Positions 29,513 to 29,792 are shown, counted from the first letter of the stretch. The stretch: DNA of 52,304 bases from a virus (IMGVR_UViG_3300020197_000033:1-52304); one strand, 5' to 3'. Numbers and translations: made by a program. Notes: a model not told the origin generated them from the letters alone.

Positions 29513-29792
29513 TCCGCTTTTGCGGATAGGTGGTTCCACCGATATTTCGGACAGGGGTTCGATTCCCCTTATCTCCATTTCGCGGGGATATACTGGTTTC
29601 GACGGGGTGTTATGGGGAATTACTGAAACCTGCTTGGATAAGCAAAAAATAGATGCCAAAAACATCGAAGCCGCGAACAAGATTGTTCGCTTCTCCCGTC
29701 AGTCTGCTCCTGTAGCTGCCTGACCCATATAAGGGAGAACGGGGTCAAGTCAGCCTTGTTACCCAAGTGACTCTTGAGGGTGAAATGCCCTC
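29513..29792 (+). ncRNA. ssrA: Circularly permuted (two-piece) tmRNA
   Basis: 3' acceptor/T-arm (GGACAGGGGTTCGATTCCCCTTATCTCCA, ends 29577) precedes the 5' end (GGGGATATACTGGTTTCGACGGGG, starts 29584); G3:U pair; tag ...ANKIVRFSRQSAPVAA* ends 29723; outer ends approximate. Confidence 0.93.

Follow-up and report, generated by a model that had tools for sequence, protein, structure and literature searches.

tmRNA is the RNA that frees stalled ribosomes, and the locus described here raises the question of whether an uncultured T4-like cyanophage from lake water has a two-piece tmRNA gene of its own, and what such a gene would do during infection. The locus lies in a stretch of 52,304 nucleotides (IMGVR_UViG_3300020197_000033:1-52304; the window, hereafter), which is an IMG/VR virus record with an estimated completeness of 25%. 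A first reading made from the sequence alone (the sequence-only reading) had proposed that a circularly permuted, two-piece tmRNA is encoded at 29513-29792. That observation proved correct in nearly all details. We consider it likely that this is a genuine and intact two-piece tmRNA of the phage, that it belongs to a lineage confined to cyanophages, and that it sustains ribosome rescue and tagging in the infected cell.

ARAGORN placed a permuted tmRNA (tmRNA*) between 29488 and 29814, its tag being AKNIEAANKIVRFSRQSAPVAA*. The Rfam model RF01851 (cyano_tmRNA) matched 29495-29791 over model positions 1-288 of 288 with 174.2 bits (E 1.4e-48; gathering score 70). Both scans, which the sequence-only reading had suggested, were thus positive and placed a permuted tmRNA where it had been proposed. 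The merged model RF04321 (tmRNA_permuted, gathering score 47) gave 98.5 bits on the same gene, for which RF01851 was the best-scoring Rfam model; no riboswitch family reached the Rfam threshold within the window. The two-piece gene is intact and its order is permuted, the T-arm and the acceptor 3' strand being encoded before the acceptor 5' strand and the tag frame. These results support its assignment as a phage-borne, circularly permuted tmRNA gene of the cyanobacterial type, with the sequence-level hallmarks of such a gene. The parts of the locus are as follows:

29335..29419, plus strand: tRNA-Leu (anticodon TAA), first gene of the cluster (ARAGORN; Rfam tRNA, 52.4 bits)
29424..29430, plus strand: CTAAATA motif, candidate T4-type late promoter element (sequence match)
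29441..29512, plus strand: tRNA-Thr (anticodon TGT), abutting the tmRNA gene (ARAGORN)
29513..29791, plus strand: two-piece tmRNA gene of the cyanobacterial type (RF01851 and ARAGORN)
29513..29577, plus strand: acceptor piece (Rfam structure line and RNAalifold)
29513-29526, plus strand: 5' hairpin of the acceptor piece (Rfam structure line)
29541-29549 with 29603-29611: helix P2, GATATTTCG pairing with CGGGGTGTT (Rfam structure line)
29553-29569, plus strand: T-arm, within the acceptor piece
29570-29576, plus strand: acceptor 3' strand, TATCTCC
29577, plus strand: discriminator A
29578..29583, plus strand: linker TTTCGC of 6 nt between the pieces, predicted to be removed in processing
29584..29791, plus strand: coding piece, with the acceptor 5' strand, the P2 3' strand, the tag frame and 3' hairpins (Rfam alignment)
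29584-29590, plus strand: acceptor 5' strand GGGGATA, with G3 opposite U
29655..29723, plus strand: tag frame AKNIEAANKIVRFSRQSAPVAA with TGA stop at 29721-29723 (ARAGORN)
29520..29723, plus strand: 67-aa ORF in the tag frame, spurious (ORF list)
30169-30250, plus strand: tRNA-Leu (TAG) (ARAGORN, Rfam tRNA)
30612-30686, plus strand: tRNA-Asn (ARAGORN, Rfam tRNA)
30687-30759, plus strand: tRNA-Ala (TGC) (ARAGORN, Rfam tRNA)

The architecture described in the sequence-only reading could be followed element by element in this map. The acceptor and T-arm half precedes the 5' half at a distance of the six nucleotides TTTCGC, the stem GGGGATA/TATCTCC has the alanine-type G3:U pair, and CCA is not encoded, because the discriminator A29577 runs into TTT. 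The two strands that had been said to pair are those of helix P2 of the Rfam model (29541-29549 and 29603-29611), which covaries in the phage lineage. The window gene has a tRNA-Ala-like acceptor (a stem of 7 bp, G3:U and an A discriminator) as well as a tag frame with an alanine codon, an A at position -4 and the end PVAA directly before the TGA at 29721-29723, as had been claimed for the intact tag. The gene begins right after tRNA-Thr, which ends at 29512, and 3' processing of this tRNA would set the 5' end of the tmRNA precursor.

In a PHROGs search of 34 ORFs we found a tail tube, a baseplate hub, a baseplate hub/tail lysozyme, a baseplate wedge and a 2,248-aa tail fibre, together with a gp32-type SSB, PhoH, thymidylate synthase, a carbamoyltransferase and 2OG-Fe(II) oxygenases; T4-type phage genes are present on both sides of the tmRNA, and the contig is a T4-like cyanomyovirus. 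The carbamoyltransferase, a Nol-like protein of 554 aa (phrog_1601, E 4.4e-113), is encoded directly 3' of the tRNA cluster at 30790-32454, and the two 2OG-Fe(II) oxygenase genes lie at 41182-41745 and 44530-45246. The closest deposited genome is that of Synechococcus phage Sf-FS3 (~72-74% identity), in which the order is the same as in the window: tRNA-Leu, tRNA-Thr, tmRNA, tRNA-Asn, tRNA-Ala and then a large fibre gene. tmRNA genes are common targets of integration according to the accessible parts of Hudson et al. 2014 (PMC4131195) and Buchholz et al. 2022 (PMC9004378), and the gene might be read as an ssrA fragment left at an integration site by a temperate phage or a genomic island. However, it is complete (1-288 of 288 model positions) and not a 3' fragment, the PHROGs search of 34 ORFs brought up no integrase, and T4-like phages are of the lytic type, so that we regard such an origin as exceedingly improbable.

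It could also be argued that the assembler had joined a host tmRNA to phage DNA, since tRNA genes, at which short-read assemblies break, flank the region and no Logan contig in the four runs examined extends from phage genes through the tmRNA. The stretch was found in 20 lake-water metagenome runs, and the 23 runs listed in all included no RNA run. The tmRNA-bearing piece (29458-29879, 422 nt; in run X20 29476-29879, 404 nt), which runs from the last part of tRNA-Thr through the complete tmRNA into the following ORF, showed 0 differences from the window in the four runs examined. Its depth tracked the phage contigs on either side in each run, over an 18-fold range (664 versus 701/708/690, 129 versus 131/128, 158 versus 177/183, and 36 versus 39/38), and contamination by host DNA or a chimera is therefore unlikely. 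The gene order shared with the cultured phage Sf-FS3 points the same way, as does the window sequence itself, which goes with viral and not with host copies and includes the tag extension met only in viruses. Host contamination or misassembly, by which the sequence-only reading could have been overturned, thus has a very low probability in our view, and the gene is located in phage DNA.

The tRNA island downstream of the tmRNA (30007-30735) is variable within the lake populations. Runs X2 and X5 have lake contigs that jump from 30007/30008 to 30615, and runs X5 and X12 have contigs that jump from 30216 to 30735. At the tRNA genes, which other phages share, the depth increases 10-80 fold.

The sequence-only reading had also placed the gene behind a 'late-type' CTAAATA. 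The motif is indeed found at 29424-29430, but its status as a promoter was not supported: the window contains 9 matches versus 12.75 expected (at least 9 were reached in 91 of 100 shuffles), and in Sf-FS3 no TAAATA is located directly before tRNA-Thr and the tmRNA. Being neither enriched nor conserved in Sf-FS3, CTAAATA is retained here as a candidate promoter only. A near-consensus sigma-70-type match (TTGACA, 17 nt, TATACT; 11/12) lies at 28715-28743, ~600 nt upstream of the tRNA/tmRNA cluster, and no terminator-like site was found between it and the tmRNA. This match, a stronger one than CTAAATA, could drive early transcription of the cluster by the host RNA polymerase.

Relatives of the gene were sought with the tmRNA as blastn query among 50,697 phage records, of which 17 matched: Sf-FS3, seven records of S-CAM1, three of S-CAM3, three of S-SSM7/S-SSM6a, Marine virus AG-345-P14 (a partial match) and two with short matches to the T-arm. 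The survey of phage genomes proposed in the sequence-only reading thus did yield permuted relatives. At the loci of four cultured cyanomyoviruses (Sf-FS3, S-SSM7, S-CAM1 and S-CAM3) the full RF01851 model was matched with scores of 143.3, 128.2, 126.9 and 109.4 bits, and ARAGORN called a permuted tmRNA at each of the four. A tmRNA feature is annotated in none of these four deposited records. The tmRNA is overlain by a CDS for a 'hypothetical protein' in S-SSM7 (SSSM7_025, positions 2504-2722 of the extracted locus), S-CAM1 (N330309_215, 2474-2599) and S-CAM3 (C421010_205, 2455-2595), and the 67-aa ORF of the window at 29520-29723 is the counterpart of these false calls. The tmRNA of Sf-FS3, unannotated in its record, was found in this analysis. 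A wcaG RNA motif (RF01761, 83.5 bits) was also detected in the S-CAM1 locus at 5066-5162, ~2.3 kb downstream of the S-CAM1 tmRNA.

The sequence-only reading had implied that two-piece tmRNAs are rare in phages, and this is not borne out by the accessible part of Buchholz et al. 2022 (PMC9004378), in which 18,146 phage genomes were surveyed and 133 unique tmRNAs were obtained, 53 of them two-piece and 50 of these 53 from marine or aquatic phages. Its Table S1 labels seven cyanophage records as 'Permuted' (S-CAM1, S-CAM3, S-SSM7, S-SSM6a, S-CRM01, S-CBWM1 and AG-345-P14). In the accessible part of Hudson et al. 2014 (PMC4131195), phage tmRNAs are listed only for mycobacteriophages and Bacillus phage G. 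In the accessible text of its paper, phage S-H9-2 is reported to be without a tmRNA, and in that of the Sf-FS3 paper the word tmRNA does not occur; our literature search on cyanophage tmRNA itself found nothing beyond PMC9004378. The window gene is thus a freshwater and basal addition to a kind of phage tmRNA that has already been catalogued.

For comparison with a larger number of copies, we used an exact-pattern scan that gave 37 IMG/VR stretches and at least 120 stretches in species-representative genomes; such a scan misses divergent copies (Sf-FS3 itself was missed), and its counts are samples and not censuses. Among the genome matches listed (n=120), ARAGORN made no call in 4, called 100 of the cyano-type and 16 of other types, the tags of the latter being mostly betaproteobacterial. 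Of the 37 IMG/VR stretches, 2 gave no call, 31 were of the cyano-type and 4 of other types. The last four are the contigs L011, L036, L007 and L013, whose permuted tmRNAs fall in two kinds: one pair, tagged ANDERFALAA and with a linker of 27 nt, clusters with betaproteobacterial copies of the Rhodocyclaceae type, and the other pair, tagged GNDYELQMAA, lies on a very long branch and has a linker beginning with CCA. A further contig (L120), labelled as a MAG of Sphingobacterium thalpophilum (Bacteroidota), contains a two-piece tmRNA of the cyano-type with the tag ANNIVRFSRQTAPVAA, placed among Synechococcus and Cyanobium copies; this contig is probably mis-binned.

The acceptor stem differs between most viral copies and the host copies. 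The host acceptor strand was GGGGTTG in 50 and GGGGCTG in 50 of the 100 copies among the matches listed, and the 34 viral cyano-type strands were GGGGGTG (22), GGGGATG (10), GGGGTCG (1) and GGGGCTG (1). At position 5 there is accordingly a purine in the window (A5) and in 32 of the 34 viral copies, and a pyrimidine in 100/100 hosts among the matches listed. The acceptor stem of the window had been described as diverged, which we can extend: GGGGATA was found in the window only, among 161 copies compared (the host copies being those among the matches listed), and the change is compensated on both strands, so that the stem is kept. The short linker had been put forward as a special feature, a view that did not survive comparison. 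Linkers are 4-6 nt long in all 34 viral copies and 5-33 nt in hosts, where exactly 6 nt occurred in 47 of 100 copies among the matches listed, as is usual for hosts of the Prochlorococcus type; a linker of 6 nt is therefore ordinary.

Conservation of the fold was examined by RNAalifold in 21 viral copies (two of the 23 unique representatives, L015 and L032, were left out as near-duplicates). The acceptor stem, T-arm and P2 together comprise 27 pairs, 11 of which show compensatory double changes, P2 and T-arm pairs among them. The G3:U pair is kept in 21/21 copies, and A7:U66 of the window is a double change from the G:C pair of the other 20. This pattern of covariation is that of purifying selection on a working RNA, and the fold, as judged from the aligned sequences, is kept in the viral lineage. 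The gene could alternatively be a passenger, that is, a host tmRNA gene acquired with the tRNA island and functionless or decaying. The tRNA islands of these phages are highly variable, as seen in the lake contigs that skip 30007-30615 or 30216-30735, and the tmRNA is absent from most cyanomyoviruses, with blastn matches in 17 of 50,697 phage records. Against this stand a gene that is intact over the full RF01851 model, a fold maintained by compensatory changes across a deep, virus-only clade of several genera, and a tag frame that is open in all ARAGORN-called viral copies. On balance, we find it quite improbable that the gene is a passenger and retain the reading of a working phage tmRNA.

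The tag provides a second difference between viral and host copies. In 98 of the 100 host copies among the matches listed it has 16 residues (ANKIVSFSRQTAPVAA, ANNIVRFSRQxAPVAA and close variants), and the remaining two were called with a prefix of 2 residues. In viral copies the ANNIV core is preceded by an extension of 6-7 residues, mostly of the form A-N/K-T-S-D-x-A, which corresponds to ~20 extra nucleotides at the resume region relative to hosts. The extension was found in 28 of the 31 cyano-type IMG/VR copies, in 4/4 copies of cultured phages, all of them cyano-type, and in the window (AKNIEA, 6 residues), giving a lengthened tag in 33/36 viral copies versus 0/100 cyano-type host copies among the matches listed. 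All viral copies called by ARAGORN have an open tag frame, and in several viral tags the final VAA is replaced by ATA, ATV or VAV. The last 16 residues of the window tag have one difference from ANKIVRFSRQTAPVAA, the tag of some Prochlorococcus genomes. Three cyano-type IMG/VR copies are devoid of the extension (L027, L034 and L017). Two of these, L027 and L034, with the tag ANNIVSFRRTAVAV, lie inside the viral clade on a long branch, a position that suggests secondary loss of the extension; L017 has a host-like tag, a long branch and an uncertain placement.

In E. coli the base at position -4 is critical for the choice of frame by the ribosome resuming on tmRNA. An A was present at this position in 98/98 hosts among the matches listed. 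In the unique viral copies, A was found at -4 of the upstream site in 18/18 but at -4 of the downstream, host-equivalent site in 1/18, the exception being the window; it is thus at the upstream site that translation probably resumes in the viral lineage. In the window itself the resume codon is ambiguous, since both candidate sites have A at -4, and the alternative, host-equivalent codon GCG at 29673 would give the tag ANKIVRFSRQSAPVAA. Variable sites over 17 seven-codon extensions were distributed as 4, 3 and 5 over codon positions 1, 2 and 3, with no clear excess at the third position. The 18-nt extension of the window matched the next 18 nt at 10/18 positions, a value reached by 459 of 100,000 shuffles, and two other offsets in the tmRNA gave 9/18; this hints only weakly that the extension may have arisen by tandem duplication of the first codons of the tag.

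In a tree of all 137 unique rows, 22 viral cyano-type sequences formed a clade (SH-aLRT 95), and the window was unresolved between this clade and the hosts, with an end branch of 0.51; its best identity to any copy compared was 77%, to a viral one (L008). We then considered a reduced tree, in which 21 of the 137 rows were dropped (6 long-branch or non-cyano, 13 betaproteobacterial and 2 untitled rows grouping with the latter). In this unrooted tree from a quick search, with the extension columns removed, the window and the 22 viral rows stood apart from 93 host rows, taken from the matches listed, with an SH-aLRT of 100, and the 22 viral rows without the window were supported at 94.6. The window copy thus appears, from these alignments, to be basal in a virus-only tmRNA lineage of T4-like cyanophages, and this placement agrees with its host-like tag end and with its Rfam score, the highest obtained. 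The virus-only clade spans the genera Lipsvirus, Anaposvirus and Charybdisvirus, and the window shows the marks of the lineage: grouping with viral copies in the reduced tree, an extension of 6 residues, a 6-nt linker and a purine at position 5.

How could such an RNA work? Neither SmpB (0/5; the control was found in 10/14 genomes) nor a CCA-adding enzyme domain (0/5) was detected in the five phage records examined, namely the window and four complete relatives; as the window holds ~25% of a genome, the absence of SmpB in this phage rests on the four complete relatives. Host factors would therefore be required. We infer that the RNA is expressed, processed, charged and used in tagging, to the benefit of the phage, in the following way. 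The gene would be co-transcribed with the neighbouring phage tRNAs, and host RNase P and 3'-end nucleases would excise the 6-nt linker, giving the acceptor piece and the coding piece. CCA would be added by the host CCA-adding enzyme, and the host alanyl-tRNA synthetase would charge the RNA with alanine by way of G3:U and the A discriminator; it is assumed here that viral acceptor stems with a purine at position 5 fit the host enzymes fully. Host SmpB and EF-Tu would then deliver the phage tmRNA to ribosomes stalled on broken mRNAs, so that rescue could continue as the cell's own supply of RNA decays during infection, and truncated proteins would receive a degradation tag that is host-like in its last 16 residues. 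Our literature search found no evidence on expression, processing, charging or tagging for a cyanophage tmRNA. The role proposed is the same general one as in the accessible part of Buchholz et al. 2022 (PMC9004378), where upkeep of the hijacked machinery or recycling of amino acids is suggested for viral tmRNAs.

The features that set the viral copies apart could also mean that the phage tmRNA is functionally distinct, competing for SmpB, directing proteins by its longer tag to another adaptor or protease, altering degradation, or working when the host tmRNA is inactivated. The proposal of the sequence-only reading that the phage RNA replaces a host tmRNA cut by defence nucleases belongs here as well; we found nothing bearing on it in the sequence or in the papers searched. 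A distinct function would agree with the lengthened tags (28/31 IMG/VR copies, 4/4 isolates and the window versus 0/100 hosts among the matches listed), with the viral clade lying apart from hosts, with the purine at position 5 (32/34 viral copies versus a pyrimidine in 100/100 hosts among the matches listed), and with the several viral tag ends ATA, ATV or VAV. However, the tag of the window has the host-like end RFSRQSAPVAA, and its degradation signal is therefore probably read like that of the host. Moreover, translation of the extension is deduced from the -4 base alone, the codon-position counts being 4, 3 and 5, and the literature search found no nuclease that targets cyanobacterial tmRNA. 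We consequently hold a distinct function to be unlikely.

It is likewise doubtful, in our estimate, that the lineage represents a virus-adapted, specialised rescue RNA, in which the extension and the purine swap at pair 5:68 would make it work differently from, or independently of, the host tmRNA. If this were true, the independence could come from another adaptor or protease, or from resistance to something that inactivates the host RNA. The window copy would then be the least-derived member known, with a viral resume region and a still host-like degradation signal, and its extension, possibly a decayed tandem copy of the first codons of the tag, might show how the lengthened tag originated.

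Under the reading that we prefer, in which the phage tmRNA serves ordinary ribosome rescue with host factors, the fact that the phage brings a rescue RNA of its own but relies on the SmpB of the host suggests that, after host transcription has ceased, phage yield is limited by the capacity for rescue. Much of the primary production in aquatic systems is under the control of cyanophages. The window copy helps to define what marks the lineage: a longer tag, a short linker and a changed acceptor stem. The first of these is also a clean experimental handle, because peptides with the extension in infected cells could have no source but the phage RNA. In practice, the gene is either unannotated or hidden under a CDS wrongly called 'hypothetical protein' in each of the four deposited relatives examined.

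Compared with known systems, the window gene is closest to those of the cyanomyoviruses S-CAM1, S-CAM3, S-SSM7, S-SSM6a and Sf-FS3, with which it shares a permuted gene of the cyano-type beside phage tRNAs, a linker of 4-6 nt, G3:U and the discriminator A. The lengthened tag with its N-terminal extension of 6-7 residues, the lack of a phage SmpB and membership of the same virus-only clade are common to the window and the cultured copies, and the location upstream of a large tail-fibre gene is common to the window, Sf-FS3 and S-SSM7. Unlike the cultured copies, the window tmRNA is basal in the clade (72% nucleotide identity to Sf-FS3), has an extension of 6 residues (AKNIEA) and not 7, has the acceptor strand GGGGATA, and comes from lake water and not from the sea. 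The rest of its tag is host-like (RFSRQSAPVAA), whereas in most viral tags AFSR precedes STVAA, TRELATA or a similar end. With the two-piece tmRNAs of picocyanobacteria (Prochlorococcus, Synechococcus, Cyanobium) it shares the architecture, the absence of an encoded CCA and, in the case of Prochlorococcus, the short linker; it differs from them in being virus-borne, in lying on the viral side of the tree, in acceptor pairs 5-7 and in a tag of 22 residues versus 16 in 98/100 host copies among the matches listed.

Two other groups of phage tmRNAs are more distant. The tmRNA of phage Melnitz and the pelagimyophages, as described in the accessible part of PMC9004378, resembles that of the window in being permuted, in belonging to an aquatic T4-like myovirus without an SmpB of its own and in the roles proposed for it, but it belongs to another tmRNA lineage, the alphaproteobacterial or alpha type, and that of Melnitz has a glutamine riboswitch in its 3' part. 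The tmRNAs of mycobacteriophages (Bxz1 group) and Bacillus phage G, according to the accessible part of PMC4131195, are likewise phage-encoded and dependent on host SmpB; unlike the window gene, they are one-piece and unpermuted, with unrelated hosts and tags.
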